64,000 nucleotides of DNA from positions 64,001 to 128,000 of the IMG/VR virus record IMGVR_UViG_3300045988_119718; one strand, given 5' to 3'. The notes under the pieces were generated by a model. It was not told where the DNA came from and made no database searches. It was given only the letters and a program-made list of their open reading frames with translations. Both the position numbers and the translations under genes were made by a program. Source of the stretch: a virus. This document shows, one piece after another, positions 24,501-59,232 of the stretch (position 1 is its first letter; every line of letters begins with the position of its first letter).

Positions 24501-26119
24501 ATATAGATTCTTATGTAGGTAAAGTAGCTATAGATGGTTCTGATAATATCATTATTACAGAAGATAATAAGAATAATCTTATTGGTAAAACAGTTAAGTT
24601 TAATACTAGTGGTTTATTTATTGATAATACTGTAAATAATTTTGATAGTATTATAATGAGTAGAGATATTTATAATAAGTATGATTATAAAAACAATACT
24701 TATGTAATGCTATTTAAACGTGGTATGCTGCCAGAATGGTATAATAAAATTCAATATACCAATGATAAATTCTATTTCACTGATATACCTAGAGCTGATT
24801 ATAGGACTATTTATATGGAAGAGTATGAAAAGCAATATATCCAAGTAATGGGTAAAGAAGGGGAATTTTACAATGGTAAAACTACTAGATCGTTTAAAGT
24901 AGAAGATGGGACTGATTTTGAAACTGGTTATGAAATATCAGTAATTGCAGATTATGGCTATACAGCTGGTAAGGTTAAAGAATCCCCTGGTATTGTAACT
25001 AGTGATTCTTGGATTAGAGCTTATGAACCAGAAATAAACTTCTATACTGTAACTGTAGTTACCTCTCCTCATCAACATATTAAAGCCACTATTATCAGCA
25101 ATAAAGAAGGATATGATTTATCTACTTTGGAAAAATTATCATATACTGATACTACATTTAGAGTTCCTTACAATACTACAGTTAATTTTGAATTAACTGC
25201 TGATAAAGGATATACAGCTGGAGAATTAAATTATAACTCTATTGTTGTAACTAAAGATACTACTATTAAAGCTGCAAGAGAAGCAGACACTAATGATTAT
25301 ACTATTAGAACAGCTAATTTGTATAAAGATATTATCGATATAAGTATAGAATATAAAGATAAAGAATATAAAGATGTTACTGTTAATGCTAAATATGCTG
25401 ATACATTTAAGGTCATTATAAAAACTCTTAACGATAGATATGTATACAATGGAATAGAATATAATGAAGATACTATGCACAAAAATGATGATGGTTCATA
25501 TACTTTATTAGAAGATACTGTGATATCTGTAAAACAACCATTAGAAAACGCTCATAGATTCTATATCTACGATAACTCTGATATGGATATAACCGCTAAA
25601 AATTATGGCATTGATAATAAACTGATATCTTCTTGCAGTATAAATGAAGATATGAAAATTATTAATAGAGATATAATTAAAGTCAATGTTAAGCCAAATA
25701 GTAATTATAATGCGGCTATTCCATTATTAATAGAAGGTACTCCTAAAGCATTAGTAAAGCCTGATAACGAAAATAACCAAGCTGAATTAAATTACACTAT
25801 TACTGCTGGAGAAACAGATATTAGTATTAGAGCATCTGATACTAAGATTAGATACTTTACTATTAATATTCCTAATAAAGATAATCAGACTATTACGATT
25901 AAATATGTAAACCCAGTTGATAGTGGTACTTATACTACTATTAAGTCCGTAAGTGTACCATATGGTACTATATATACAATTACAGTAACTCCGAATGAAG
26001 GATATAATGCTGGTACAGCTAATCCTTCTAGTGGTACAGTAACCAGTACTGTAAATATCAATGTAACAGATGCTACTAAGATTAGATATAAAGTTTACCT
26101 TAATGCTGGCAATGGTTAA
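21521..26119 (+). CDS. giant virion adhesin / fibre protein (1532 aa) with LamG/ConA-like, CBM5/12-like repeats and C-terminal Ig-like modules
   Basis: RBS AGGAG. LamG-like segment (aa ~40-225) ends ...GYIDDFVLVKGLS. Five tandem ~45-aa repeats W.KP..Y..GD.V.YNGK.Y......P....W (aa ~292-530). C-terminal repeated modules end in GYTAG / GYNAG. Confidence 0.7.
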   Translation: MDYETLINLKFKRTEGSVDLTKSKWSSVVINEANYREETVDYSSAGRFDNGEAAYLDGEFSVINKITGKNLSLDLNADEFTFALWVNCDFTKMNMKQYLLCGNNQIKNSNNSIYLQPDKFKTNMSIVLVSSTGTKIEIPFIENSGLILTGRWVWLRLTKSNDNKINFYINNELIGTSSVITSSFKLIFNNNETCIGKGYDADYLYYPHFKGYIDDFVLVKGLSYNKAKVPSTYFLNEIDPSLLEDAANVWDEKEREFSQYDSITNAIEWKRFNTKEEIDKREQALIPYMLTPIWKQCDINLPTWIKPVLTNPYRINDKVIYNINQIYNNTIDFNTEYPDAANGWKLIHNTLDDIKEWEKPNKYYNYMDKVLYNKRVYQSQVNYNTELPAAWMVLTALTNSEKEELDDDIYKWNKEIEYAFKDRVKYNNKYYISIMNNNLGYIPGDTTYWKEVGGGTSFITDWVKPTTYKNGDIVSYNGKYYHSNIDYNILTPGNHHVEWTEITYWEQPKYKNVYVDGDKVFYKGKTYICNLAKDSSGNYKYHEYSIVAPDKYVNKKYYKALYHIIPEGGNYYDPRDVESIFWQEIPKTQITDYSLYKEWVRGNVYNTGDLVVATDYDWKQTFISEGFFQNKQFTIDRDDTTIKIKLYDAWDNHYLSNDKDRIYFKKNYLEAFNLIEVDGYILMINNKFIKWTDIDIIRSDRFVTLSIKKPSSFVVKDVVLIRLPCKVIYSETGYMPDNGIKLFGFDTNGNFGSDINIYAVNNRLRELVYTDTKFDNIFIDTNLDHKITRSNLFVFDEDGKFITRDNYTISSANIFTYIPIDTDKKYTLYCIWDDTENSNEDNLALIPNDIRVRQYLRNYNTNTNMDNDYPVDLQQLNKEFDYSVVRHTSDKRYDDNISNSMNGIFNYNKNKFDSVYEEVRPVNIEEYSEAYMNSLKRNIRITIDETNLPQLLHSYIVEGTDLIELCDENKNKYIGKTVIMKLRQYLSVTLTKSNIDSYVGKVAIDGSDNIIITEDNKNNLIGKTVKFNTSGLFIDNTVNNFDSIIMSRDIYNKYDYKNNTYVMLFKRGMLPEWYNKIQYTNDKFYFTDIPRADYRTIYMEEYEKQYIQVMGKEGEFYNGKTTRSFKVEDGTDFETGYEISVIADYGYTAGKVKESPGIVTSDSWIRAYEPEINFYTVTVVTSPHQHIKATIISNKEGYDLSTLEKLSYTDTTFRVPYNTTVNFELTADKGYTAGELNYNSIVVTKDTTIKAAREADTNDYTIRTANLYKDIIDISIEYKDKEYKDVTVNAKYADTFKVIIKTLNDRYVYNGIEYNEDTMHKNDDGSYTLLEDTVISVKQPLENAHRFYIYDNSDMDITAKNYGIDNKLISSCSINEDMKIINRDIIKVNVKPNSNYNAAIPLLIEGTPKALVKPDNENNQAELNYTITAGETDISIRASDTKIRYFTINIPNKDNQTITIKYVNPVDSGTYTTIKSVSVPYGTIYTITVTPNEGYNAGTANPSSGTVTSTVNINVTDATKIRYKVYLNAGNG

Positions 26120-26128
26120 ACTATTGTA

Positions 26129-26773
26129 ATGAATCCGGCTTTGAATAGCGATGGGACTTATGATTGGGGAACTAAATGGTCTGCTACATTAGTTGCATGG
26201 AAAGGATTTAAAGCTGGTAGTATATTTAGTGCTACTAGTGGTACTTGCTATAGCGATATATCAGTAAATGCTACTGCTGCATCATTAACTACTGAGTTAT
26301 TATCAGTTAAATACCATACTCCAACTAACAAATATGGGTTTGCTGGAAGCGTTTATGGTCAACAACAGACCGAATATAACCAGATTGGGATACAAACTGG
26401 TATTAAATTACTGAATAATTACGCAAATGAGCCACAAAAATGGGTGGAAATACCAAATAATTTCCATCCTGGCACTTATAATATATCCTACTTACGGACA
26501 TATTATAATGCTATACGTATAACATGCCCATACCAATATTCATGCATTAACATTGATACAAAATGGGTTAATACATCTGATAATGGTAATGGTAATGTAC
26601 ATGGATTTAAAATTATAGATGAGCAGTGCTTAAAAGGATTTTCGATAGCAGGTGGCGGCGGTGATAGAGGCCACTATGGTGAAGGGCAACTACATGTAAC
26701 ACTTACTGTTCCTGGAATTTCTGGTAGTATATCTTTTAAAGCTATTTGGGCTATAAAAAGAAAGGGTTTATAA
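26129..26773 (+). CDS. hypothetical structural protein (214 aa)
   Basis: ORF directly after the giant gene. Confidence 0.5.
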   Translation: MNPALNSDGTYDWGTKWSATLVAWKGFKAGSIFSATSGTCYSDISVNATAASLTTELLSVKYHTPTNKYGFAGSVYGQQQTEYNQIGIQTGIKLLNNYANEPQKWVEIPNNFHPGTYNISYLRTYYNAIRITCPYQYSCINIDTKWVNTSDNGNGNVHGFKIIDEQCLKGFSIAGGGGDRGHYGEGQLHVTLTVPGISGSISFKAIWAIKRKGL

Positions 26774-26776
26774 ATT

Positions 26777-27326
26777 ATGACAACAACTTTAAAAGGAACT
26801 ATACGGGGGGGGGGTAACCTTTAGTGCCTCTCCAGCTATAATTATACCAAAAATACACTACTACATAGCTAAAGGCTCTAGCCCATGGTATAGTAGTTAC
26901 TGGAAGGATAAGAAATTAGTTACTAATGTAGATGAATCTGTATCTGGGCAAGCTACGGTTACATGCAACACTATAACAGATACGTACTATATGTTCTTTA
27001 ACCTCTCTAATCTTACTACAATAGATTTATCTAATTTCGATACATCTAAAGTAACTGTTATGGCTGATATGTTTGCTCTTTGCTCTAATCTTACTACAAT
27101 AGATTTATCTGGCTTTGATACTTCTAAAGTAACTAATATGAGTTTTATGTTCTATAACTGTTCTAACCTTACTACTATTAAAGGCACTATAGATATGACA
27201 AATTGTGTAAGTTATCACAATATGTTCGATGGTTGTACCAAGCTTAAAGATGTTAATATTATGAATCCACCGGCAAACTTTAATGATGCTAAATTGTCTC
27301 CTTCTCAATATACCATAGCATCATAG
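26777..27326 (+). CDS. phase-variable leader + DUF285 (BspA-like) domain protein; the ATG at 26777 is out of frame with the G10 tract in this sequence (OFF state), the DUF285 part is ORF 26991-27326
   Basis: ATG at 26777 gives MTTTLKGTIR. The G10 tract is at 26805-26814. With G9 or G12 the frame continues GGVTFSASPAIII...GQATVTCN...MFFNLSNLTTIDLSNFDTSKVTVMADMF... into the DUF285 repeats FxxCxxLTTIDLSxFDTSKVTNM. Confidence 0.6.
26805..26814 (+). repeat. homopolymeric G10 tract (putative slipped-strand phase-variation switch)
   Basis: Ten consecutive G in a genome of about 30% GC, placed at codons 10-13 of the leader. Confidence 0.8.
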
Positions 27327-27368
27327 TATAAATTTAAAAAAATAAAGTAAACTATATGCACTGTATCT

Positions 27369-27402
27369 GTTCCAGGAATGATAAATTAGAATTCCTGGAA
27401 CA
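27369..27402 (+). terminator. perfect 11-bp inverted repeat GTTCCAGGAAT-N10-ATTCCTGGAAC (terminator or operator)
   Basis: Seen directly; lies between the DUF285 gene and the 1205-aa gene. Confidence 0.4.
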
Positions 27403-27447
27403 CATTTTAAACTATTATTTAACTAATAGAAAGGAGGAAAATATTAA

Positions 27448-30400
27448 ATGCCATATGATTATACAACTAATATTCCTGGATATGAAGTTTGTTATTTCAG
27501 AAATATTTGTAATGAAGTTATTCCTTACCCTAAAGATGGGTTAGATTATCTTCCTATAAAAAATAATAATTATTATATACCAGAAAATGATATAGTAATT
27601 TATACCACAGTAAAAGGAGAATATAATCTCTGCCCTATAAAGTATACTATAGATAGAATTAATAATAAGATTATAGTAGATCCTAAATACAAAAAATATA
27701 AATTATATTATGGATCTAGAAATCAGTTTTTGTATCAAAGAATTCCACTACAGTTCCCAGTTCAATCTATACCTTTACCGTATAAATTTAGAACTGGGTA
27801 TAATGAAAATAATTATTTTATATTTGTAAATGGTAGATTATTAAACTCAGCTTTCTATAAAGTATTGATTCCTAATTTAGAGGATAATAGAATAGAAAAT
27901 AAAGTTTTATATTTATCTAAGCCTATATCCTCTGATGATACATTAGATGTATTTTATATCGGTAATAATGCGTTTACAAGAATTAATGGTACTGGTGATT
28001 TAGTGGTTAAACCATTTAGAGTTAAAGCCACTGAACCAATACAAAGATTATTTAAGATACCTAAACCATATAAAGATTATCCAGTAAATGATTATAACTC
28101 ATTTATGATATTTAAACATGGTACTAGAATTAGTACAGATAAGTACAATATCATTTCTATATACAATAAAGAAACTGAATCAGTTGATTATTATATAGAT
28201 TTATTAGATATAGATGAGTATTTAATCTATGATGATGATTTAATATTTATATTTCCATACTATAAAGCAGAGTGGGAAACTACTAATGCTATATCTAAAA
28301 CTAATCCATTAAAGTTTATTACTCTATATAAGAAAACTACAACTAATACAAATACTGTAGTATTTGATTCTTCTTCTATAGGAAATTTTACTAATGATGA
28401 ATTTATTTATGTATTTGAAGAAACTAAACTTTTAAATACTGATGAATATTCTGTAGTAGGTAAGAATACTATTCGATTTAATAAAACTATACCAGCAAAT
28501 ACAGAATTAGCTGTAGTTATAGAATCCGATAAAGATGATATTACTAATGATTCTACTATATTAAACTATCTTAATATACCAGTAATGAATGATGGTCAAT
28601 GGTTTTTTAATGTTCCTACTAATAACTTCAATGAATATTTTTTATTTAGAAATGGCGAATTAGTTCCTAAGGATCATTATTCTATTTCTAATAAAAAACT
28701 TATATTCGGTAGAAACTATAACGATTTACGGGCAGGGGATACACTTACAGCTGTATACGCTAATGATGGTTCAGAAGATATAAATAGTATCAATCTTCAT
28801 GAGTACAATGTTACAGCTAAAGCGGATAATGAAATTATAGTTCCTAATGATGTAGGTATTAAATATACAAATGAAAATATTATAGTATTTATTGATAATA
28901 GATTTATAAGCAATACCTACTATAATATTATTGGTAATACTATAGAATTCAAAGATAATATAGTAGTAAAAGGTAGTGAAGCTAATATTTATTTAGCTTA
29001 TAAAACTATAGATAGCTCTAAAATAAATTATAACTTAAATAAATCCAGTGTAATTCAATTTATAGAGCAGAATAATACAGTAGAATCTGATAATCAATCT
29101 ACATTTAAAATTAATTATCCAGATAGTTTACCAAAATATGTAGTTGATTGTCCAGTATTAGTATTCATTAGAGGTATACTAGTAGCTGATGCTAATTATA
29201 CTATTACTAAAGATGATGAAAATACCGAAGCTGTATTAAAGCTTAATTCTAAATATTCTTCAGTATTAAAACAAGGAGATATTATCGATTTTGTATTCTG
29301 CTATTTACCATCTTCAGGCTCAATATCTAAAAAAGAATATGAAACTAAATTATCTTCTAAAACTATTCAATTACCATATGTATATGCTGAACCTATAGAC
29401 TTATCTGAAAGAGTATTAGTATTTATTAATGGTAGTTTTATAGAGAGTGATAATTATACTATAGATAAAACTAATCGTACTATTACTCTTAACGATAATA
29501 TAACCATAAATAAAACTAGTGATATAAACTTTGTATTTTTATATACTGGTAGTAATACTTCTGGCTCTGTAGGATATGTACCCCAATCTGGGTATTTATT
29601 CTTCGATGAGCATACTATAGATAGAAACTTAAGTAATGAAATGATGATGGTATTTGTCAATGGGTTATTAGTTCCTAAATCAGAAATACATGATATTTCC
29701 AATTCTCTTAAAAAGATAACTAGAAATATTAAAACAAGATATGATTTAAATATTGTAACTTGTTCTCCATTAGTAACTGAATTTAAGAAACTATACGACC
29801 CAGAAAATAACTCATTAAAATATAGATTTGAAATCATTCAAACTCCAAATCAAATTATTAAAGTTTCTATAGATGATAAAGTATATTATAATTCCTTTGC
29901 TTATAAGAGCGGAGAGATTAGTAAATTTAAAGTAGAAGTTATTCCTAATAAAGGATATATAGCTGGTAAATATACACTGGATGGACAAACTAATTACAAC
30001 TTATCTTGGCTGGATGATAATCATACCATAACTGCTACACCAGCTACTAAAGGAACTATGAGCAAAGTTACTATTAAACAATCTTTAAATCAAATGATAA
30101 GTGTAACCTGTAATGGTAAAACGTATAATACTGATTTTGAAGATTTAGTTGGTAGTGACCTTATAGCAAATATAGTTTCTACTAGAGATGGATTTACTCC
30201 TGGGGTTATAAGTATGAGTAGCACTAAGATTACTAGTAGTGGGGTTACTGTATCTGCTGCTAATGCTACTATAGAGACATTTACTTTAAATATTTTAAAT
30301 AAGAACTTAGATAATCAGGATATATCAATTAGAATTACTAATCCTAATACTGGGGAAGTAATAGTTAATAACGTTAAAGCTCCATGCAATCTTACTAATA

Positions 30401-31065
30401 TTCCATTTGGTAGTAAATTCATAGTATATGCTAAAGCTAACAGTGGTTATAGAATAGGAAGTAGCATTGGGCCTTATAAGTTAAACCAAATGTATTACAT
30501 AGATTATAAATACCCATTAGATAACTTAGTAGTAGATCCTGTATCTAAGGTTACATTCCATACAGTAACTATGACACCAGCTAATAATGTAACTCTAGTT
30601 ATGTATAACTGGGATGAATATTCTGATAATGGTAAGACTAGATATGAATGTAGGGATGTAGTAGAAAAGGTAAAAGTAGCTGATGGTAGTATATATGAGT
30701 TTAAGGTAGAACCAGATTATGAATATAGTAGTGGTGCTATAATTTCTTCTACTGGAGAATTAGCTGGTGTAGTAAACACAGATATTTCTGTAACTACAGA
30801 AGATGCTGTAAAAGAATTACCTATTGTAATTATAGAAAGGGAAAATAATGTCTCTGAATTTTATAGCATTAAAGTAGAATTTTCTGATAACTATCATCCA
30901 GCTGGTGAAGGTATTTATAGAATATCTGAAGGTACTTCGTTTACAGCTAGATGTATATTACATGGCGTAGTAAATTATTCTATAAATGGTATAGTAGAAT
31001 CTGGAGTTAATAGAATTAAATTGCTTCAAGACGGTACTATTAATATTTCTAAAGAAGAGGTTTAA
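27448..31065 (+). CDS. giant repeat-containing virion/fibre protein (1205 aa) with C-terminal Ig-like GY-x-AG modules
   Basis: RBS GGAGGA. Multiple ~90-aa modules of the form [DN]xY[ST]I....I.F... C-terminal modules contain KGYIAGKY, SGYRIGSS and YEYSSGA. Confidence 0.65.
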   Translation: MPYDYTTNIPGYEVCYFRNICNEVIPYPKDGLDYLPIKNNNYYIPENDIVIYTTVKGEYNLCPIKYTIDRINNKIIVDPKYKKYKLYYGSRNQFLYQRIPLQFPVQSIPLPYKFRTGYNENNYFIFVNGRLLNSAFYKVLIPNLEDNRIENKVLYLSKPISSDDTLDVFYIGNNAFTRINGTGDLVVKPFRVKATEPIQRLFKIPKPYKDYPVNDYNSFMIFKHGTRISTDKYNIISIYNKETESVDYYIDLLDIDEYLIYDDDLIFIFPYYKAEWETTNAISKTNPLKFITLYKKTTTNTNTVVFDSSSIGNFTNDEFIYVFEETKLLNTDEYSVVGKNTIRFNKTIPANTELAVVIESDKDDITNDSTILNYLNIPVMNDGQWFFNVPTNNFNEYFLFRNGELVPKDHYSISNKKLIFGRNYNDLRAGDTLTAVYANDGSEDINSINLHEYNVTAKADNEIIVPNDVGIKYTNENIIVFIDNRFISNTYYNIIGNTIEFKDNIVVKGSEANIYLAYKTIDSSKINYNLNKSSVIQFIEQNNTVESDNQSTFKINYPDSLPKYVVDCPVLVFIRGILVADANYTITKDDENTEAVLKLNSKYSSVLKQGDIIDFVFCYLPSSGSISKKEYETKLSSKTIQLPYVYAEPIDLSERVLVFINGSFIESDNYTIDKTNRTITLNDNITINKTSDINFVFLYTGSNTSGSVGYVPQSGYLFFDEHTIDRNLSNEMMMVFVNGLLVPKSEIHDISNSLKKITRNIKTRYDLNIVTCSPLVTEFKKLYDPENNSLKYRFEIIQTPNQIIKVSIDDKVYYNSFAYKSGEISKFKVEVIPNKGYIAGKYTLDGQTNYNLSWLDDNHTITATPATKGTMSKVTIKQSLNQMISVTCNGKTYNTDFEDLVGSDLIANIVSTRDGFTPGVISMSSTKITSSGVTVSAANATIETFTLNILNKNLDNQDISIRITNPNTGEVIVNNVKAPCNLTNIPFGSKFIVYAKANSGYRIGSSIGPYKLNQMYYIDYKYPLDNLVVDPVSKVTFHTVTMTPANNVTLVMYNWDEYSDNGKTRYECRDVVEKVKVADGSIYEFKVEPDYEYSSGAIISSTGELAGVVNTDISVTTEDAVKELPIVIIERENNVSEFYSIKVEFSDNYHPAGEGIYRISEGTSFTARCILHGVVNYSINGIVESGVNRIKLLQDGTINISKEEV

Positions 31066-31071
31066 AATATT

Positions 31072-31458
31072 ATGAATACTAATATAAGAACCAAAGTCGT
31101 AAACGATACTAATGAATTGATATTTAAAAATAAAGATTTGTTAGTAGATAACTCTCCTGACTCAGATACTACTATTGCCGCGGATAATGTAACTGTAACC
31201 ATAGTTCAACCTAAAGATACTAAGTATAGCATTATAGTTTATATCATGGAATATAGACGAAGTGATGAAGGGGATATCTTTGAAGCTGATACTGATGAAG
31301 GGCATAAGGAAACATTTAAAGCTGCAAAAGGAAGTGTATATTTAGTAGTATTATTGGATAATACTACTAATAGTACTTCTACCGACTATTATCGTCTTAA
31401 TACATCTTCTAGAGGTAAACTTACTAGCGACATAACTATTAAATTTAAAGATGAATAG
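31072..31458 (+). CDS. hypothetical protein (128 aa)
   Basis: ORF followed by terminator hairpin 31463-31495. Confidence 0.5.
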   Translation: MNTNIRTKVVNDTNELIFKNKDLLVDNSPDSDTTIAADNVTVTIVQPKDTKYSIIVYIMEYRRSDEGDIFEADTDEGHKETFKAAKGSVYLVVLLDNTTNSTSTDYYRLNTSSRGKLTSDITIKFKDE

Positions 31459-31462
31459 TAAA

Positions 31463-31495
31463 TTATCCCATAGGGCATAAAACCCTATGGGATAA
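31463..31495 (+). terminator. stem-loop TTATCCCATAGGG-CATAAAA-CCCTATGGGATAA
   Basis: After ORF 31072-31458. Confidence 0.55.
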
Positions 31496-31532
31496 TACGT
31501 GTTTAACAATTATGTAACCGATTAAAGAGAGG

Positions 31533-33008
31533 GTGATAACTTTGAGTGAAAACAGCTATCTTATAACTCTTTTACAAAAAGAAAATCAAACTATAATAGC
31601 TTATGAATTGAATGATAAAGGAGAATATACTGGTGTAAGCCATACTGAATCATTCTTTGCTAAAGCTAATTCTAAATGGAAATTTACTGTAATACCCGAT
31701 AAATTTCATGAAGATTATTGGATTCATATTATACAATCTGATCATCAAACAATTATAGTTAGAGATAACGCAAGATTTCATGATTATAGAGCTGGTGTAT
31801 TAGTATCTTATCCAGATGATGATAAGCTTACTGGTATTCAAGCTGGTGATTTAAATAGTGGTATTTATCCAGAAACTAATTATGATGTTGCTGTAGAAGA
31901 ACCACATGATAGATATAAATACTTAGTAGTTAATCAAAATTGTAGAATCTTTGCTACATTAGCTAGAGATTTATACAATAATACTGATTATCATACAGTA
32001 ACTATTAAACAAGTTAAGCATCAAACTATAGTGCTTACTTATAGAAATAAAAAGTACTATTCTGATACTATAGTTGAAAATAATGAAGATTATACTGTAG
32101 AATTAATACCAGACCCTGGATATACTGCTACTTCATTAATTATTAATGGTAAAACTATAAATAGCTTAAAGTATACTGGTAAAGCTGCTGAAGATCTAAC
32201 TATAACAGCAGTACAATCACAAGCAGGTACAGATTCTAACTATTTAGAATTTATATTTAAAGAATTTGATTCTAGAATAGAAAGATTTAGTAATAGTGAT
32301 GGGAAATTATTAGTAGGTACTCTACAAGAGGTTACAACCATTATTAACCCAGATAAAAACATATGTGAAATTACTATTATACAGTCTGCTAATCAGACCA
32401 TCCATGTATATATACCATACAAAGGCGGTACTGACCACACATCTTCCTTTACTTGTCCGTTAGGTACAACCTATGAAGTAGAGGTTATAGCTGATAAGGG
32501 ATATATAGCTGGTACACCGAATACCAAGGTAGGAACAATTAATAGCAATATGTCTATTGATGCTAGCCCTGCTGTAAAGCCTCAAATATATATAGCTAAA
32601 GGTAGTAGTGGTGGATGGTATAATAAAGTAAACGAAACAATGGAGTGGAAGGATAAATCTCATGTAATTAAAGTAGATGAATCTATACCAGGACAAGCTA
32701 CAGTTATCTGTGATGGTAATATAACTAATATGAAGTATATGTTCTATGCATGTAACAACCTCACTTCAATAGACTTATCTAACTTTGATACATCTAATGT
32801 AACTAACATGGGCATGATGTTCTTTGGCTGTGATAATCTTACTACTATTAAAGGTGTATTCGATATGAAGTCTTGCACAAATTATGCCGGTATGTTTGCG
32901 ACATGTACTAAACTTACTAATGCTAAGATTAAAAATCCGCCAAAGGATACTGATTGGTGGAAAAATGCTGGATTTAACTCTACATCTCAGTTCACTATAG
33001 TATCATAA
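31533..33008 (+). CDS. Ig-like module protein with C-terminal DUF285 (BspA-like) domain (491 aa; the true start may be TTG at 31542)
   Basis: GY-x-A[GT] modules DPGYTATSL and DKGYIAGTP. C-terminal KGSSGGWY...VDESIPGQATVICDGNITNMKYMFYACNNLTSIDLSNFDTSNVTNMGMMF is paralogous to the 26777 gene. Confidence 0.65.
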   Translation: MITLSENSYLITLLQKENQTIIAYELNDKGEYTGVSHTESFFAKANSKWKFTVIPDKFHEDYWIHIIQSDHQTIIVRDNARFHDYRAGVLVSYPDDDKLTGIQAGDLNSGIYPETNYDVAVEEPHDRYKYLVVNQNCRIFATLARDLYNNTDYHTVTIKQVKHQTIVLTYRNKKYYSDTIVENNEDYTVELIPDPGYTATSLIINGKTINSLKYTGKAAEDLTITAVQSQAGTDSNYLEFIFKEFDSRIERFSNSDGKLLVGTLQEVTTIINPDKNICEITIIQSANQTIHVYIPYKGGTDHTSSFTCPLGTTYEVEVIADKGYIAGTPNTKVGTINSNMSIDASPAVKPQIYIAKGSSGGWYNKVNETMEWKDKSHVIKVDESIPGQATVICDGNITNMKYMFYACNNLTSIDLSNFDTSNVTNMGMMFFGCDNLTTIKGVFDMKSCTNYAGMFATCTKLTNAKIKNPPKDTDWWKNAGFNSTSQFTIVS

Positions 33009-33040
33009 GTATAGATTTTTTTTAAAAGGATTTATAAATT

Positions 33041-33838
33041 ATGGCAACAGTAAATATTAAACAACCAAAGAATGCAACTATCCACGTATATACCCCTCAG
33101 AAAAATGGAGGGGTAGATCATACCTCTACTTTTACAGTAGATGAAAATACTGCATATGAAGCAGAGGTTATTGGTGATAGTGGATACTTACCTGGGGATT
33201 TAGGCGTAGGTATTGAAAGAGAAGTTGCTTCTAAAGATTTAAAATATATTTATCTATATAAAAAAAATAAAATTAAAACTACTCCATTATTATTTGGGCA
33301 TAATGATAATTTATTTGTATCTTCATTATATGACCCGAGTAATATAATTTATAGTGGTAACACTAATAACCCAAAGCTTACCAATAATAAATTTATACAA
33401 CCTGAGATATTGAAGTATTATGGGTTTGATTATTTATTTGGATACTTTGACGAATTAGAGGGAAGTTCTATTAGTAGTGCAACTGTTCCTGTTAAAAACT
33501 CTAATTATAGGCTAACTATAAGATTATTAGGGTTTAATCTATTTAAAATGAGTAAGAATTCTAATAAGAAAACTGGTAGATGGGTTATAGGATTTAATAA
33601 AATCGATAATCTGACTATTAATTCTATAACTATGCGTATAGCTGATAGTAATGGTAATGAAATAGCTGTAATTAAAGATTTTAGATATTTAAATGCTATT
33701 CCTGGGGATACCAATAATAGTAATAGAGTACAGATATATTGCACTAGCTCATCGATAAATAATGAATTAGACCCAACCTATTTATACTTATTAGCTAATA
33801 AATCTAATATAGTTAAAGTAGGGTTAGTAGTAGAATAA
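33041..33838 (+). CDS. Ig-like module protein (265 aa)
   Basis: N-terminal module MATVNIKQPKNATIHVYTPQKNGGVDHTSTF...GDSGYLPGDLG is near-identical to the C-terminus of the ORF at 55386-56750. Confidence 0.55.
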   Translation: MATVNIKQPKNATIHVYTPQKNGGVDHTSTFTVDENTAYEAEVIGDSGYLPGDLGVGIEREVASKDLKYIYLYKKNKIKTTPLLFGHNDNLFVSSLYDPSNIIYSGNTNNPKLTNNKFIQPEILKYYGFDYLFGYFDELEGSSISSATVPVKNSNYRLTIRLLGFNLFKMSKNSNKKTGRWVIGFNKIDNLTINSITMRIADSNGNEIAVIKDFRYLNAIPGDTNNSNRVQIYCTSSSINNELDPTYLYLLANKSNIVKVGLVVE

Positions 33839-52902: not shown

Positions 52903-53001
52903 TTGGTAATGTAAAAAAAAAGAATTGTATATTATTGTATTGAAGCTAGATATCTAGCTTCAATACATTTTTATTTATATTTCTTAAGGAGGAAATATAC
53001 C

Positions 53002-53577
53002 ATGGCAACATCTCTTAGAAACGTTATTGAAAACTTCAAAATTAGCATGGACGAAATTGATAATCATCTTAATGCACAGGATGAATATATCAATGATCTG
53101 GCAAGGAAAGCTAAACAGGTTAGCTCTGCACTGAAACTGCTTAAAATTGCAGTAAGATCTAATGCAGATAAAATTGACGGATACTACTATGTGGATGAAA
53201 GGGATAAAGATGCATTTTTGAAAGATGATGATGTGTCTGGGCTTTATAATACCATAGCCGCTGAAGGAACGTATTCTATCATCATTCTTGATGATGAATC
53301 TCCATTGTTCCTTCAGGAGATTCCAGTCACGATTTCTCATGAGTACGATACGGCTAATGATGCTATGACGGCAAGAATTATCTCTTTCTATGCTGATGAA
53401 GAAGAGCATAACTACGTCAATAATACACTTGGCGAATACAAAGAAAACGCTTTCCCACCAATCGATGATACCATTATGATGTTTATCGAAGATACCAAAA
53501 AGAGAGCTAAAGAAATTGAAGATATTCGCAAAGCTACCAGTATTGAGAACCATCCTATTGGTAAAGAAGAAAAATAA
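53002..53577 (+). CDS. hypothetical acidic protein (191 aa)
   Basis: Strong RBS AAGGAGGAAATATACC-ATG, followed by terminator 53594-53631. The antisense ORF 52984-53607 is rejected. Confidence 0.5.
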   Translation: MATSLRNVIENFKISMDEIDNHLNAQDEYINDLARKAKQVSSALKLLKIAVRSNADKIDGYYYVDERDKDAFLKDDDVSGLYNTIAAEGTYSIIILDDESPLFLQEIPVTISHEYDTANDAMTARIISFYADEEEHNYVNNTLGEYKENAFPPIDDTIMMFIEDTKKRAKEIEDIRKATSIENHPIGKEEK

Positions 53578-53593
53578 CAAGGAAGGGTGAAAA

Positions 53594-53631
53594 TAAAAGG
53601 TACTCATATGAGTACCTTTTATTTTTTTTTT
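53594..53631 (+). terminator. rho-independent terminator
   Basis: AAAAGGTACTCATATGAGTACCTTTT followed by T11. Confidence 0.7.
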
Positions 53632-53850: not shown

Positions 53851-54630
53851 TTAATATTTTATCAATAAATAAACTCCATCATCAGGAATATTTGTATTAG
53901 GATAGTATATAGTAATAGTACCAGCTCCACATACGGTTTTTAATATTTTATAGTTATCTAAATCACAAGCTGCGGCTTTATCGGAAGAAGTAATGTCCTT
54001 ATCATCTGTATATACATAATGTGCTGTCGTACCTTCTATTACCCAATCAGCTTTATCTGTACCTGTTCTAATACTACTTCCGCCGCATAAAAGAATCATT
54101 AATGATTGCTCATCAATAGATGATGATGAACCAGCGTTTTTTAAATCATCTTTTGTAGCTAATTCGCTACCTTTATAAGTGATAGTCTCACCTTCACCCA
54201 TATCCAATAATGTCTTAGTACCACTCTCTGTTATAGAGTTTACCTGTAAACCACCATTCATAATGATTTTAGACTGATTGGTCTGTTCTCCATGAGTGAT
54301 TACGGTTTCATTGTTGACCACAGGATGATTAAAAGTTGTATCAGAGTTTACCTGTATTTCTTTTACGTTAAAATCTAAAGCACCATTGAATTCGGTATGT
54401 CCGTTAAATGTTACTTGACCATCGAACTCTGCTAAACCTTCAGCAAATACATTATTACCATTTAAAGTATTATCACCAATTAAGTTTACTTTCTTGTCTA
54501 ATTCAGCTTTAATTACTTTATTTTGTACAGCATTAAGGCTGGTATCAGATAAAGATTCATCTAATTGTGTTGTTGGAGAGGAGTAAATATTCCCCCCCCC
54601 CACAATAACTCCAGATATTGTTTGTGACAT
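53851..54630 (-). CDS. fibre-like protein (259 aa) carrying the conserved poly-G leader (G10 in frame, ON)
   Basis: MSQTISGVIVGGGNIYSSPTT, where GGG is encoded by the C10 tract at 54592-54601 (plus strand). The body is Gly/Asn/Thr-rich and beta-helix-like. Confidence 0.6.
   Translation of the reverse strand: MSQTISGVIVGGGNIYSSPTTQLDESLSDTSLNAVQNKVIKAELDKKVNLIGDNTLNGNNVFAEGLAEFDGQVTFNGHTEFNGALDFNVKEIQVNSDTTFNHPVVNNETVITHGEQTNQSKIIMNGGLQVNSITESGTKTLLDMGEGETITYKGSELATKDDLKNAGSSSSIDEQSLMILLCGGSSIRTGTDKADWVIEGTTAHYVYTDDKDITSSDKAAACDLDNYKILKTVCGAGTITIYYPNTNIPDDGVYLLIKY
54592..54601 (-). repeat. homopolymeric C10 (G10 on the coding strand) tract
   Basis: Seen directly. Confidence 0.8.
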
Positions 54631-54924: not shown

Positions 54925-55356
54925 TTAATAATCAGTAACTGTTGGGGTATGAGTATTAATTTCAGGAGACCATGAAATTGTGAAACTGAGCCGATCGGCA
55001 CCATCTGCATTATACTCAGTCTCCCCGATCCAGTATACCAACTTATTTGTACCAGTAACTACGTTATACAAAACTGCATCCATATAGAATGATTCTTGTT
55101 CATCTTGCATTTTGTATTGCAATTCACCAGTAAGCCTATATTCACGGGAAGGTGTTACCCCCACGAAAGTGGTTTCATCAATTTCATTACCATAATAATC
55201 AATACCATACAACCTTGCTTTAACAACTTTTACATTTGGGAGGGGGTAAATACACCCATATGATTAAAATTAGTAGACCCAGTAGGTATACTTACAGTTG
55301 CTGGAGAGGCACTAAATACTACCCCCCCCCACTACTCCCTTAATCGTTGTTGCCAT
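54925..55356 (-). pseudogene. leader-family paralog P4, doubly frameshifted (G9 tract, interrupted GGGAGGGGG tract, C-terminal SPEIN..TDY module)
   Basis: RBS AGGAGGA + ATG at 55356: MATTIKGVVGGG, then a stop. The +1 frame continues VFSASPATVSIPTGSTNFNHMGV. The frame returns at CCCCCTCCC (55247-55255) to ...YGIDYYGNE...TISWSPEINTHTPTVTDY. Confidence 0.5.
55322..55330 (-). repeat. homopolymeric C9 tract (G9 on the coding strand)
   Basis: Seen directly. Confidence 0.8.
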
Positions 55357-55385: not shown

Positions 55386-56750
55386 TTATTTAACACTTAA
55401 ATCACCTGGTAAGTATCCACTAGCAGCTACAACTTCTGCTTCGTAGGTAGTTCCTATTGGGCAGGTAAATGTGGACGTATGGTCTGTACCACCAGATTTT
55501 TGTGGAGTATAAACGTGAATAGTCTGGTTAGCAGACTGAACAATAGTTACAGTTGCTGTAGCTACTGTTGCTGCATTATGAGATACCGTAGTATTACCAT
55601 TTACAGTACCAGACTTTGCAGAACCTGGGTTATATCCACTATCAGCGGTATAGCTAATACTATAAGTAGTTCCGTAAGGAACACTTAAAGTTTGTGAACT
55701 CTTAGTAGCTGTTGTAGTATAAGACGGTAAGGTACCACCATATGAACTATTAGTTGCTAATCTAAGATTATAAGACTGATTTGCAGTAGCCGGAACAGTT
55801 AAAGTATAGTATCTTAATGAAGCACTAGCAGATTTAGCTGGGATAGATGTAGTATTTGTTACTGTACCACTTACTGAATTAGAAGCTGTATATGTATATG
55901 CATTTGTAGCACTATTAGCCGTATAAGCTACAGAGTACGTAGTACCATAATTTACGGTATAAGATGTAGCACTAGCAGTAGCTGCTTTAGCAACTCCATC
56001 TACAGTAGCTACATAAGTCTGGTTAGTAGTTGCTCCAAATGACAAGGTAAAGGTCTTAATAGCAGCAGCTGTAGCAGCTATAGTTACAGAATCAGTAATA
56101 GTACCACTAGTAGATGTTAATGTACCGGCATTATATCCAGTATCTGGAGTTATAGTAGCAGTCCATTTATCGCCATATGTAGCAGTAAATGTAGAAGTAT
56201 GTGCTACACCATTGCATGTTACAGTAATAGTCTGATGATCTGATTGATTAATATAAAATGTAAAAGTCTGTTTAGCAGCAGCGGTACAAGATAATGTAAA
56301 GCTACCAGCTTCAATATTAGCTTGAGTAATTCTATATGGGTTAGATACAGTAGTACCATTAATAGTTGGAGAAGATGCTTTATATCCTGTAGCTGGAGTA
56401 CAAGTAATAGTTAAAGCAGTATTCATTGGTAATAAAGTACCTGTAGATACAGCAGTACCAGAAGCATTAGTGACTCTAATAGTTTGGTTAGCTACTTGAG
56501 TAATATTCATAGCAGCTTGAGTCCATTTTAATATTGCATACTTAGTAGAAGAACCATTCTTCTGAATTCTAATACCAGAAGCATTATTAGCTGTAAGAGA
56601 AGTACCTAAACCAGCATATACATTAGCACCATCTACTTCTAAATTAATAGTAGAATATCCTGCACAGTCAGCTTTAGAAGTATATAAAGCACAAGTTCCT
56701 GAAGTACCATTTGTTTTCTGATAATGAAGAGATTTAGTTATCTTACTCAT
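55386..56750 (-). CDS. Ig-like repeat protein (454 aa), Thr/Ser/Ala-rich
   Basis: Repeated modules containing GYKAS, GYNAG, GYNPG and GYLPG. The C-terminal module is near-identical to the N-terminus of ORF 33041. Confidence 0.6.
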   Translation of the reverse strand: MSKITKSLHYQKTNGTSGTCALYTSKADCAGYSTINLEVDGANVYAGLGTSLTANNASGIRIQKNGSSTKYAILKWTQAAMNITQVANQTIRVTNASGTAVSTGTLLPMNTALTITCTPATGYKASSPTINGTTVSNPYRITQANIEAGSFTLSCTAAAKQTFTFYINQSDHQTITVTCNGVAHTSTFTATYGDKWTATITPDTGYNAGTLTSTSGTITDSVTIAATAAAIKTFTLSFGATTNQTYVATVDGVAKAATASATSYTVNYGTTYSVAYTANSATNAYTYTASNSVSGTVTNTTSIPAKSASASLRYYTLTVPATANQSYNLRLATNSSYGGTLPSYTTTATKSSQTLSVPYGTTYSISYTADSGYNPGSAKSGTVNGNTTVSHNAATVATATVTIVQSANQTIHVYTPQKSGGTDHTSTFTCPIGTTYEAEVVAASGYLPGDLSVK

Positions 56751-57295: not shown

Positions 57296-57699
57296 TTAAT
57301 AATCTGTTATTGTAGGTGTTTTTTTGTTAATTTCTGGTGACCATGATATACGATAGGTAAAGCTATTAAATTCTCTAAGCGGTACTCCATGCACCATCCA
57401 ACTCATATTATCATGTGTGCTGCATTGCACGCCAAAAACCATTGTCTGCCCCTGTCCATGAAAAAAACTTTTGGGTTTATGATATGATCCAGGAGTAACC
57501 CCTATATAAACAGGGTCTAAAGTAAAGATGCCACCACTAACATCCATTGTTAGGCTTAATGCAAGTATGTGAACATTAGCTGGGATAACAAAATTAGGTA
57601 AATCACCTTCATAACTCCCAGTAGGTACACTCACGGTAGCAGGACTAGCACTAAACGTCGTCCCCCCCCCCAATTATACCTTTTAATGTTGTAGCCATA
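57296..57699 (-). CDS. leader-family paralog P3 (poly-G 10-11; the upstream ATG at 57699 is currently out of frame)
   Basis: ATG at 57699 gives MATTLKGII + G tract (57662-57672). Downstream frame GGGTTFSASPATVSVPTGSYEGD...YRISWSPEINKKTPTITDY. Confidence 0.55.
57662..57672 (-). repeat. homopolymeric C11 tract (G on the coding strand)
   Basis: Seen directly; the count is 10-11. Confidence 0.8.
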
Positions 57700-57719
57700 T
57701 ACAACTACCTTCTTTCTTT

Positions 57720-58105
57720 TTAATAATCAGTATCGTCTGGTGTGTGAGTATTAATTTCAGGAGAATAATATATAGTTACCCCTTCTATATCATTTTCATC
57801 ATTAACATCCTCAATTTTCCAACTAGTAATTTGATGTATATTATGGGTAAAACAATAAATACCATATACCATAGTATGATGAGGTGGTATATAATCTGTT
57901 TGAAGTCCCCATACATGTGTTGAGCCAGGGGTAACACCCACGTAAAATCCACGTACATAAAGTACCTTTATTCCATTTGGAACTGTAAATCTTTCTGAGC
58001 TATCTGGGCCTATATATATGCTTCCACTCGGTATACTTGCAGTTGCTGGGGTGACACTAATAGTTACCCCCCCCCCCATATAGTTCCTTTTAAAGATTGT
58101 GACAT
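57720..58105 (-). CDS. leader-family paralog P2 (poly-G 11; upstream-ATG frame hits TAA; an internal ATG just before the tract is in frame)
   Basis: RBS AAAGGAA + ATG at 58105 gives MSQSLKGTIW + G11 (58067-58077), then TAA. The in-frame ATG-GGG-GGG-GGG-GTA gives MGGGVTISVTPATASIPSGS...IYYSPEINTHTPDDTDY. Confidence 0.55.
58067..58077 (-). repeat. homopolymeric C11 tract (G on the coding strand)
   Basis: Seen directly. Confidence 0.8.
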
Positions 58106-58123
58106 AATATGATTCCTTTCTTT

Positions 58124-58544
58124 TTAATGATCAGTTACGGTAGGAGTTTGCTTATTTATTTCAGGAGAGTATTTTATATAAAATCTATCTATTTTGCAAT
58201 CTTCGCCTTCTCTGGTTTCAGCATTTACATAAGTATAGTATTTTTTATTTGGAATTACTCCAACGTATACTGTGTGACTAGTAATGCCTTCGCCAGTACT
58301 ATAGATCCATTGACCGCTACTACTATCTACGGTTAGAACTACAATATGTTCTGTACCACTACTAATATAGGCAGATGCATAAACTTCAATCACTTTTACA
58401 CCATTAGGAATTATAAAGTCATCATTAAGGCCGTTTTCATCATTAGATCTATCCACTAAATATCCAGTTGATACAACTATTTCAGTAGCGGGACTAGCTG
58501 TGAATGTTAGCCCCCCCGATTGTTCCCTTCATCGTTGTAGCCAT
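58124..58544 (-). CDS. leader-family paralog P1 (poly-G 7, OFF relative to the ATG at 58544)
   Basis: RBS AGGAGA + ATG at 58544: MATTMKGTIGG, then out of frame. The +1 frame reads LTFTASPATEIVVSTGYLVDRSNDENG...FYIKYSPEINKQTPTVTDH. G6 or G9 would restore the frame. Confidence 0.55.
58511..58517 (-). repeat. homopolymeric C7 tract (G on the coding strand)
   Basis: Seen directly. Confidence 0.75.
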
Positions 58545-58755: not shown

Positions 58756-59232
58756 CTACTTAGCAATCTTAGAAGCTGATTTCTCAGCTTCTGATTCTAT
58801 TTTTGATCTATTCATAATTACATATTCTTTATCATATTTACTTTGCTGCCATTTATGAACTAATTCATGACAAAGTATTTCTTTTTGTTTATTTATAGAT
58901 AATCCTGATTTATTAAGAAAAATCTTATTAGTATTCCATATTCCACATGCATATGAAGTTCTTACTAATCTATTAGCCATATCTTTAGAAAGTTTATTTT
59001 CTATTAATATTTCTCTATATTCTTTATCTGTATTGGAATAGTATACTTCTAAATCTTCAAATTTATAATTTAAACATGACTCAGTATTTGCAATACACCA
59101 TTCAAAAATAGCTTTATCTTGTGTATTAGCATTTATTAGATTATGAGCACTTATAGATATAAATTGCAAATTTAGTAGTAGAAATACTAATAAGATAATT
59201 CTAATAATTATAAATCTCATTATTCTATCCAA
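58756..59232 (-). CDS. signal-anchored HExxH zinc-metallopeptidase-like protein (158 aa)
   Basis: N-terminal hydrophobic anchor IIIRIILLVFLLLNL and HELVHKWQ motif. Start overlaps the stop of the tail-fibre gene (translational coupling). Confidence 0.5.
   Translation of the reverse strand: MDRIMRFIIIRIILLVFLLLNLQFISISAHNLINANTQDKAIFEWCIANTESCLNYKFEDLEVYYSNTDKEYREILIENKLSKDMANRLVRTSYACGIWNTNKIFLNKSGLSINKQKEILCHELVHKWQQSKYDKEYVIMNRSKIESEAEKSASKIAK

Follow-up and report, generated by a model that had tools for sequence, protein, structure and literature searches.

One may ask if the length of a single run of guanines can decide whether a phage makes a particular fibre tip. The question is raised by a gene at 26777-27326 of the stretch of viral DNA analyzed here (64,000 nt; the window), in which ten G residues separate a well-placed start codon from a conserved open reading frame and put the two out of frame. 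The window belongs to the genome of an uncultured jumbo phage, AR9/PBS1-like and about 252.6 kb long. Its large terminase shares 39% identity with those of PBS1/AR9-type Bacillus phages and about 32% with the terminases of Staphylococcus jumbo phages; phage RNA polymerase beta subunits, topoisomerase II, helicases and DNA polymerase are encoded in the window too, and near-identical contigs of 252,610-252,690 bp are present in public metagenome assemblies. The sample labels (BRIT16-1, SUEZ18-1) and the HMP-style contig numbers suggest that the phage comes from human-associated samples. No tRNAs were found in the window, and a search for the host by TerL protein scan and leader DNA pattern gave zero matches in GTDB genomes. 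The region 26000-33100 had zero nucleotide matches among 50,697 phage records and the exact leader of the gene was not found in IMG/VR. With tblastn the tip matched only 12 of these 50,697 records (Listeria, Butyrivibrio and faecal contigs), no Campylobacter phage being among them, and in this collection it was not found in isolate relatives of the phage.

By the company that it keeps, the poly-G gene sits in the tail-fibre module. The plus-strand run of fibre genes comprises a 1532+214-aa protein with CBM_5_12 repeats, the poly-G gene, the 1205-aa, 128-aa, 491-aa and 265-aa proteins, and then a 662-aa protein that matches T4 gp36 and a 462-aa protein that matches tail-fibre PHROGs; the neighbours of the poly-G gene are thus the 1532/1748-aa and the 1205-aa repeat proteins. 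The large upstream fibre gene is divided into 1532-aa and 214-aa ORFs by an in-frame TAA (26117-26119). In contig L076 (99.5% identical) this codon is CAA (Gln) and the gene is one uninterrupted ORF of 1748 aa; in remoter relatives the protein has 1722-1747 aa. This TAA, present also in contig k119_143398, looks like a strain-specific nonsense mutation. The 214-aa domain has no family in Pfam or PHROGs.

The leader gene begins 3 nt past the stop codon of the upstream fibre ORF, and the sequence around its start is GAAAGGGTTTATAAATT ATG ACA ACA ACT TTA AAA GGA ACT ATA C G10 TAACCTTTAGTG, so that the tract has C on its 5′ side and T on its 3′ side (Table 1). Read directly from ATG 26777-26779, the G10 form gives MTTTLKGTIRGGGNL followed by a stop, as an earlier note on this DNA had described; this product has 15 codons. 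The same note had taken the G9/G12 frame to be open and contiguous with ORF 26991-27326, and this frame indeed contains zero stops from 26814 to 27323 and is closed by TAG at 27324-27326. With G9 the product is the predicted 182 aa, with G12 it is 183 aa, and one-unit changes of the tract toggle the gene between these (G9/G12) and products of 12-15 aa (G8/G10/G11), the stop being reached after 12-13 codons at G8 and G11. Whether the RBS-driven start is in frame with the intact, conserved tip ORF is decided by the length of the tract. The repaired protein matches Pfam DUF285 (PF03382) with 64.2 bits (cut-off 25) and PF13306 with 29.2 bits (cut-off 27.7), which points to a BspA-type LRR.

Table 1. 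Coordinates of the poly-G gene, its paralogous tip and the members of the leader family in the window
Feature	Coordinates	Strand	Remarks
Shine-Dalgarno GAAAGGG	26760..26766	+	10 nt 5′ of leader-gene ATG
Leader coding segment ATGACAACAACTTTAAAAGGAACTATAC (MTTTLKGTI + first base of R)	26777..26804	+	conserved at protein level across six paralogues, with synonymous differences
Poly-G tract, G10 (OFF here)	26805..26814	+	in frame at G9/G12; encodes Gly-Gly(-Gly) turn of putative leader hairpin
Tip ORF, ON frame (VTFSASPA...SQYTIAS, 170 codons + TAG)	26814..27326	+	DUF285 match at about 26961-27248
Residual 111-aa ORF, gene-caller output in OFF state	26991..27326	+	identical to P0121, present on 7 other contigs
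Hairpin + DUF285 tip, paralogous, C-terminus of 491-aa ORF 31533-33008	32532..33008	+	in-frame fusion to stalk repeat, without G tract (GTINSNMSIDASPAV...)
Family member, C10 at 54592-54601 (G10 on coding strand)	53851..54630	-	only leader-ON copy in window; 259 aa, fibre-like
Family member, tract 55322-55330, G9, OFF	54928..55356	-	second frame break near 55240-55263
454-aa stalk protein, ~85-aa repeats (…QSANQTIHVYTPQKSGGTDHTSTFTCP.GTTYEAEV…GY.AG…)	55386..56750	-	no Pfam match
Family member, tract 57662-57671, G10, leader OFF	57296..57698	-	in frame with tract-overlapping TTG
Family member, tract 58067-58077, G11, leader OFF	57720..58105	-	in frame with ATG of ATATGGG; G9/G12 give 127/128 aa
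Family member, tract 58511-58517, G7, OFF	58124..58544	-	G6/G9 give 139/140 aa

A second DUF285 domain is found at the C-terminus of the 491-aa ORF 31533-33008, and the earlier note had proposed that one and the same module is used in both proteins, constitutively in the 491-aa protein and under poly-G control in the leader gene. The colinearity on which this was based holds on pairwise alignment: BLASTP of the repaired protein against ORF 31533-33008 aligned 190 columns with 45% identity (E 2e-40). The alignment opens inside the leader, at residue G7 (GTIRGGVTFSASPA aligned with GTINSNMSIDASPAV), and reaches the final residue, with one additional 25-aa LRR unit in the poly-G gene. Both proteins match PF03382 (43.8 bits for ORF 31533-33008); however, these are paralogues at 45% identity and not one module, so that different ligands are possible. 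To our knowledge no ligand of DUF285 was defined by experiment. At the homologous position the 491-aa ORF reads GTINSN, without a repeat tract, and the term constitutive means no more than that. The probable true start of this ORF is TTG 31542, which is preceded by an RBS, and between the 128-aa ORF and this RBS, at about 31461-31491, lies a perfect hairpin with an 11-bp stem (ATCCCATAGGG...CCCTATGGGAT). The 128-aa ORF (31072-31458) terminates with ...TSDITIKFKDE, and its relatives (P0154, P0155 and a 638-aa protein of L002) read on ...KFKDDSPAT into a DUF285 tip.

The gene had also been assigned to a leader family, and the same leader and tract were found in all six copies. The window, with a G+C content of 30%, contains six G/C runs of at least 7 nt (G10, G10, G9, G10, G11, G7), and nine-G runs have 10 matches (in five tracts) against 0.01 expected from shuffled sequences. 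All six tracts lie 26-29 nt 3′ of an ATG that is preceded by a good Shine-Dalgarno sequence. The leader consensus of the six copies is M-[ATS]-[TQ]-[TS]-[LIM]-[KS]-G-x-[IV], and past the tract x-T/V-F/I-S/T-A/V-S/T-P-A follows in five of the six, the 54592 copy being different (NIYSSPTT). Since the leaders vary synonymously (ACA/ACT/ACG, AAA/AAG, GGA/GGT), their conservation is at the protein level, and since merely 7.6% of the glycines in the long ORFs are encoded by GGG, the G run is kept against codon preference. The leader ATG is out of frame in all window copies except that at 54592.

Other members of the family carry other tips. On the minus strand, at 57296-58544, there are three tandem small leader genes of 127-139 aa when ON, together with a broken fourth, and the four have in common a C-terminal [YW]SPEIN-x-x-TP-x-x-TD[YH] and a mid-protein F-x-[IV]P-x-[NG]-[VI]; no family in Pfam or PHROGs was found for these small SPEIN...TDY tips. 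The member at 57296-57698 would encode 133 aa with G9, which is the length found in contig k119_143398, and ON forms of the member at 58124-58544 are present elsewhere (P0208, P0210). In the leader gene 54928-55356 the repaired frame ends after 41 aa, the break lying near a C5TC3 run at about 55240-55250, and the conserved tip (…YPLPNVKV…SPEINTHTPTVTDY) resumes in a different frame; because of this second frame break the gene is probably a pseudogene in the window strain. A relative in IMG/VR (L006) has a DUF285 tip at the first of the small-tip positions, which implies that tips are exchanged behind the common leader. Directly upstream of the tip-gene cluster, a 158-aa ORF (58756-59232, minus strand) has an N-terminal hydrophobic segment, a HELVH motif and a weak Peptidase_M78/SprT-like match under the cut-off; its position is kept in L006, where it is apparently frame-broken. 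Between the convergent ORFs 52984-53607 and 53851-54630, a hairpin (AAAGGTACTCATATGAGTACCTTT) is followed by T10, the only A/T run of at least 10 in the window, and this element (53590-53631) looks like an intrinsic terminator.

In some copies the 5′ edge of the tract forms part of a start codon in a second frame, namely ATG in ATATGGG (58103-58105) and TTG in AATTGGG (57671-57673), and this is also seen in L001-L005. SD-like AAAGGA/AAGGGA sequences, formed by the K-G codons of the leader, lie 5-10 nt 5′ of these starts. As a consequence, gene callers give proteins that begin with MGGGVT in one of the two leader-OFF states. A designed three-state switch through such starts was considered and rejected: they occur in three of the six copies, which is about chance in an AT-rich context, and therefore they are treated as by-products that mislead gene callers.

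Poly-G control had been proposed from one sequence, and the comparison of assemblies supports it, with tract lengths from G8 to G11 on backgrounds 99.5-99.7% identical to the window and with ON, alternative and OFF versions in protein clusters; tract lengths are throughout those of assembly consensus sequences. Between identical flanks, tract 26805 is G8 (L075), G9 (L073, L074), G10 (L077, L078) or G11 (L076) in six contigs of other samples that share 99.5-100% identity with the window across 2.7-6.3 kb, and five contigs (L001-L005) have G11. The tip ORF of L073 differs from that of the window in none of 170 codons, yet it is in frame, as is the identical tip DNA of L074. Even more direct is contig k119_143398 (L082), which matches the window over 10,402 bp with 0 mismatches and exactly 3 gaps, all of them 1-nt changes in sister tracts (window/L082: 58067, G11/G10; 57662, G10/G9; 55322, G9/G8). 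In protein clusters at 90% identity, leader-ON members of 182/183 aa (P0125, P0128, P0132, P0137, P0139, P0140) are found together with alternative-start members of 172-174 aa, beginning MGG(G)VT, and with 111-aa OFF fragments including P0121; the contigs in the leader-ON, alternative-start and OFF states number roughly 9 : 14 : 25, and members of the sister-gene clusters have ON, alternative-start and OFF lengths likewise. Of 26 leader/poly-G genes (G7-G12) in fifteen further metagenome loci, all are a single slip away from a long ORF and six are in the ON state. The ON share of family genes is about 23-25% versus one third, a difference that is not significant at these numbers. For the exact leader allele (ATAC 5′ of the tract) no ON contig was found among the contigs compared, which have only G10 and G11. 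Tract length varies between otherwise identical genomes, i.e., it is hypervariable.

It may be argued that the OFF state is an artefact of sequencing or assembly, in which case the tract would truly be G9 or G12, the gene would be ON and homopolymer miscalls would account for the differing lengths. All these differences do fall in G8-G12 homopolymers, the least reliable sites of short-read assemblies, and the data are consensus data only. We regard this explanation as improbable, since the lengths recur across independent samples (G11 in L001-L005; G9 in L073 and L074; G10 in the window, L077 and L078) and since it leaves unexplained why 9-12 G residues occupy the same codon positions in six paralogues and dozens of homologues at 30% GC and such low usage of GGG. 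A wrong call in the window would leave the tract hypermutable all the same. Nevertheless, long G runs can be miscalled in short-read assembly, and single lengths, G10 of the window included, may therefore differ from the majority genotype, and the OFF state of the window is a consensus call from one assembly that is not to be over-read.

A comparably slim chance is given to expression that does not depend on the length of the DNA tract, in which transcriptional slippage of the phage RNA polymerase or ribosomal frameshifting restores the frame and the level of product is either fixed low or regulated on RNA. In its favour, long homopolymers are slippage sites in other systems, the phage has its own multisubunit RNA polymerase, and the leader ATG is out of frame not only in five of the six window copies but also in 20 of the 26 genes elsewhere. 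However, the ON fraction of about 1/4 is near the 1/3 expected for random slippage at the DNA level, and differences in DNA length are seen directly. Moreover, the 100 nt 3′ of the tract (26815-26914) are without the unusual RNA structure that could stimulate frameshifting (z = -0.99; 30 of 200 shuffles fold as well), so nothing indicates programmed ribosomal frameshifting. Rescue on RNA may coexist with DNA switching and would not replace it; transcriptional slippage on the G run could make the OFF state leaky.

The ON frame is under purifying selection, its part upstream of the internal ATG included. In comparison with relatives, the 59 codons 5′ of the internal ATG, which translation from that ATG would leave out, have a dN/dS of 0.23-0.53, the part 3′ of it has 0.25-0.42, and the 170-codon frame has zero stops in any relative. 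Given this selection, the conserved RBS and leader, and the identical tip DNA in frame in L073 and L074, it is very unlikely that the gene is a decaying pseudogene, i.e., a redundant paralogue of the 491-aa protein tip inactivated by frameshift, even though it is out of frame in the window and in every contig with the exact leader allele, a second frame break is present in the sister gene with tract 55322 and a nonsense codon interrupts the adjacent large fibre gene of the window strain.

The gene 26777-27326 is probably an SSR-driven contingency locus for an interchangeable fibre tip, which is OFF in the window assembly. According to what is established for contingency loci, slipped-strand mispairing during phage DNA replication would alter the length of the G tract. 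At G9 or G12 the RBS-driven leader ATG would be joined to the 170-codon DUF285 (BspA-type LRR) domain, and at G10, the state of the window, or G11 translation would stop after 13-15 codons. Every burst would then be mixed, with all six genes present in both ON and OFF variants. Context and domain fusions make an adhesin-like distal tail-fibre tip the most likely product, which would be incorporated into virions, bind a receptor and affect the host range. Since the five other leader/tract genes carry other tips, the outcome would be a mixed virion population with differing tip repertoires, a form of bet-hedging on host receptors.

How such a tip may be connected to a fibre is suggested by its fused forms. 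The DUF285 tip is fused behind stalk repeats in the 491-aa ORF, in P0179, in P0154 and P0155 (which are the window 128-aa ORF 31072-31458 fused to the tip), in the L002 638-aa protein and in the stalk-polyG-tip genes of L079-L081. Its N-cap (IAKGSxPWY...DESxSGQATVTC) and C-cap (IKNPP...SQYTI[AV]S) are common to more than 500 metagenomic homologues. The leader with its post-tract residues, LKGTI-RGG-VTFSASPA, aligns without gaps to KVGTI-NSN-MSIDASPA at the stalk-tip joint of the 491-aa ORF, and such a segment closes every internal stalk repeat, e.g., GTINNDMTINANPA in P0153. In an AlphaFold model of residues 276-491 of the 491-aa ORF (mean pLDDT 82.8; above 90 for the tip and 54-62 for the stalk repeat), KVGT and MSID are short strands around an NSN turn; the repeat region is of low confidence, and the model shows the hairpin as secondary structure only, without defined packing. 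If the segment is formed by two strands around this turn, the tract-encoded glycines would stand at a β-turn and would tolerate GG or GGG; the position of the G tract at the β-turn of a leader hairpin, drawn from the model, is a lead and not a result. The stalk repeat matched no Pfam or PHROGs family and its structure models are of low confidence, the model of the four-repeat stalk P0153 being unusable (pLDDT 42), and the Ig-like character that the earlier note gave to the 491-aa protein is not established. A Foldseek search against PDB gave nothing significant, with weak LRR matches only, e.g., TLR8.

Stalks that end without a tip are encoded as well. The last repeat of the 454-aa stalk ends with ...GYLPGDLSVK, one hairpin short, and a leader gene comes next; the identical truncated stalk end is found in an IMG/VR relative (L006, 3882-5246). 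In other large phages (L079, 5012-5019; L080, 3383-3390; L081, 5009-5017) a G8/G9 tract lies inside a fused stalk-tip gene, at the same stalk-tip junction as in the 491-aa ORF but a few residues earlier. There the stalk reads ...GYNAGTLNISGGGGN and a stop, and the next frame reads on VINGDETINATSATKPQIYIAKGS...SQYTIVS, so that the OFF state gives a tipless stalk, cut short at a point equivalent to the end of the 454-aa stalk, and the ON state a stalk-DUF285 fusion. In L079 and L080 a stand-alone leader gene with G11 lies directly 3′ of the fused gene. The 1205-aa fibre protein of the window (ORF 27448-31065) ends with ...LLQDGTINISKEEV, which resembles the GT[LI]NIS strand 5′ of the tract in L079-L081, and may, to judge from this resemblance, be another tipless stalk end.

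The leader together with the post-tract residues (LKGTI-GGG-VTFSASPA) could be imagined as a portable docking hairpin, by which stand-alone tips attach in trans and complete the truncated repeat of tipless stalks. We hold this to be a tentative idea, and rather an unlikely one. If it were true, the six independently switching tracts would choose the tip on a shared stalk, thus forming a combinatorial, phase-variable system of exchangeable fibre tips in which the G tract lies in a glycine turn that tolerates changes of length.

The reading of the gene as a contingency locus has consequences both for phage biology and for annotation. With at least six loci each one slip from ON, virion populations would contain many tip combinations, hence the host range would fluctuate. 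Gene callers split or mis-start such genes, giving 111-aa fragments and proteins that start with MGGG, and assemblies of one phage differ only at the tracts, which bears on annotation, on the comparison of strains and on predicting the host range of gut or oral jumbo phages.

A limited literature search found no paper on this phage group, on the leader family or on DUF285 tips under poly-G control, yet several known systems resemble parts of the described one. Its layout is most like that of bacterial leader-repeat families. The Neisseria opa genes with CTCTT repeats and the poly-G surface genes of Campylobacter and Helicobacter are bacterial contingency families, in which each copy of a multigene surface or adhesin family is switched independently by a repeat just past the start codon, so that expression is combinatorial; here, in contrast, the family is encoded by a virus, and the leader is a homologue of a fibre-stalk β-hairpin instead of a signal peptide. 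The same repeat domain is found in DUF285/BspA-type LRR surface proteins (PF03382, PF13306) of Mycoplasma, Listeria and other bacteria, whereas here it is a short C-terminal module of 3-4 repeats in phage fibre proteins. Where alternative tail-fibre tips are produced by DNA inversion, as by Mu Gin and P1 Cin, a constant stalk is combined with alternative C-terminal tips that alter host range (cited in PMC12823448); in the present phage repeat slippage takes the place of inversion, and there are more than two alternatives, each independently switched. T2/T4 and other coliphages are reported to have contingency loci in all gene classes, where reversible simple-repeat frameshifts through polymerase slippage diversify the progeny (Gomez, Barrick and Waters, bioRxiv 10.1101/2025.10.21.683753), whereas here G7-G11 tracts are devoted to one family of fibre-module genes. 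The closest precedent in mechanism are the Campylobacter Fletchervirus phages, for which poly-G phase variation of receptor-binding proteins was demonstrated experimentally (Sørensen et al., 2021, Cell Rep 35:109214, as summarized in PMC11868660; also cited in PMC12823448). Both are AT-rich phages with several hypermutable G tracts per genome in tail-fibre or receptor-binding genes and with ON/OFF switching by frameshift, and mixed virion phenotypes are the proposed outcome in both, the switching proposed here being read from assemblies. However, here the tracts lie 26-29 nt past the start codon of small, paralogous, stand-alone tip genes with a common leader, in an uncultured AR9/PBS1-like jumbo phage, and since tblastn revealed no sequence similarity to the receptor-binding proteins of Campylobacter phages, the likeness is in mechanism only. 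Poly-G phase variation of phage receptor-binding proteins would thereby reach beyond cultured Campylobacter phages, to an uncultured jumbo phage of ~250 kb. The mechanism is already known; what is unusual is the leader family with its six members, the placing of the tract at the turn of a putative hairpin, and the occurrence of the tips in both fused and stand-alone forms.
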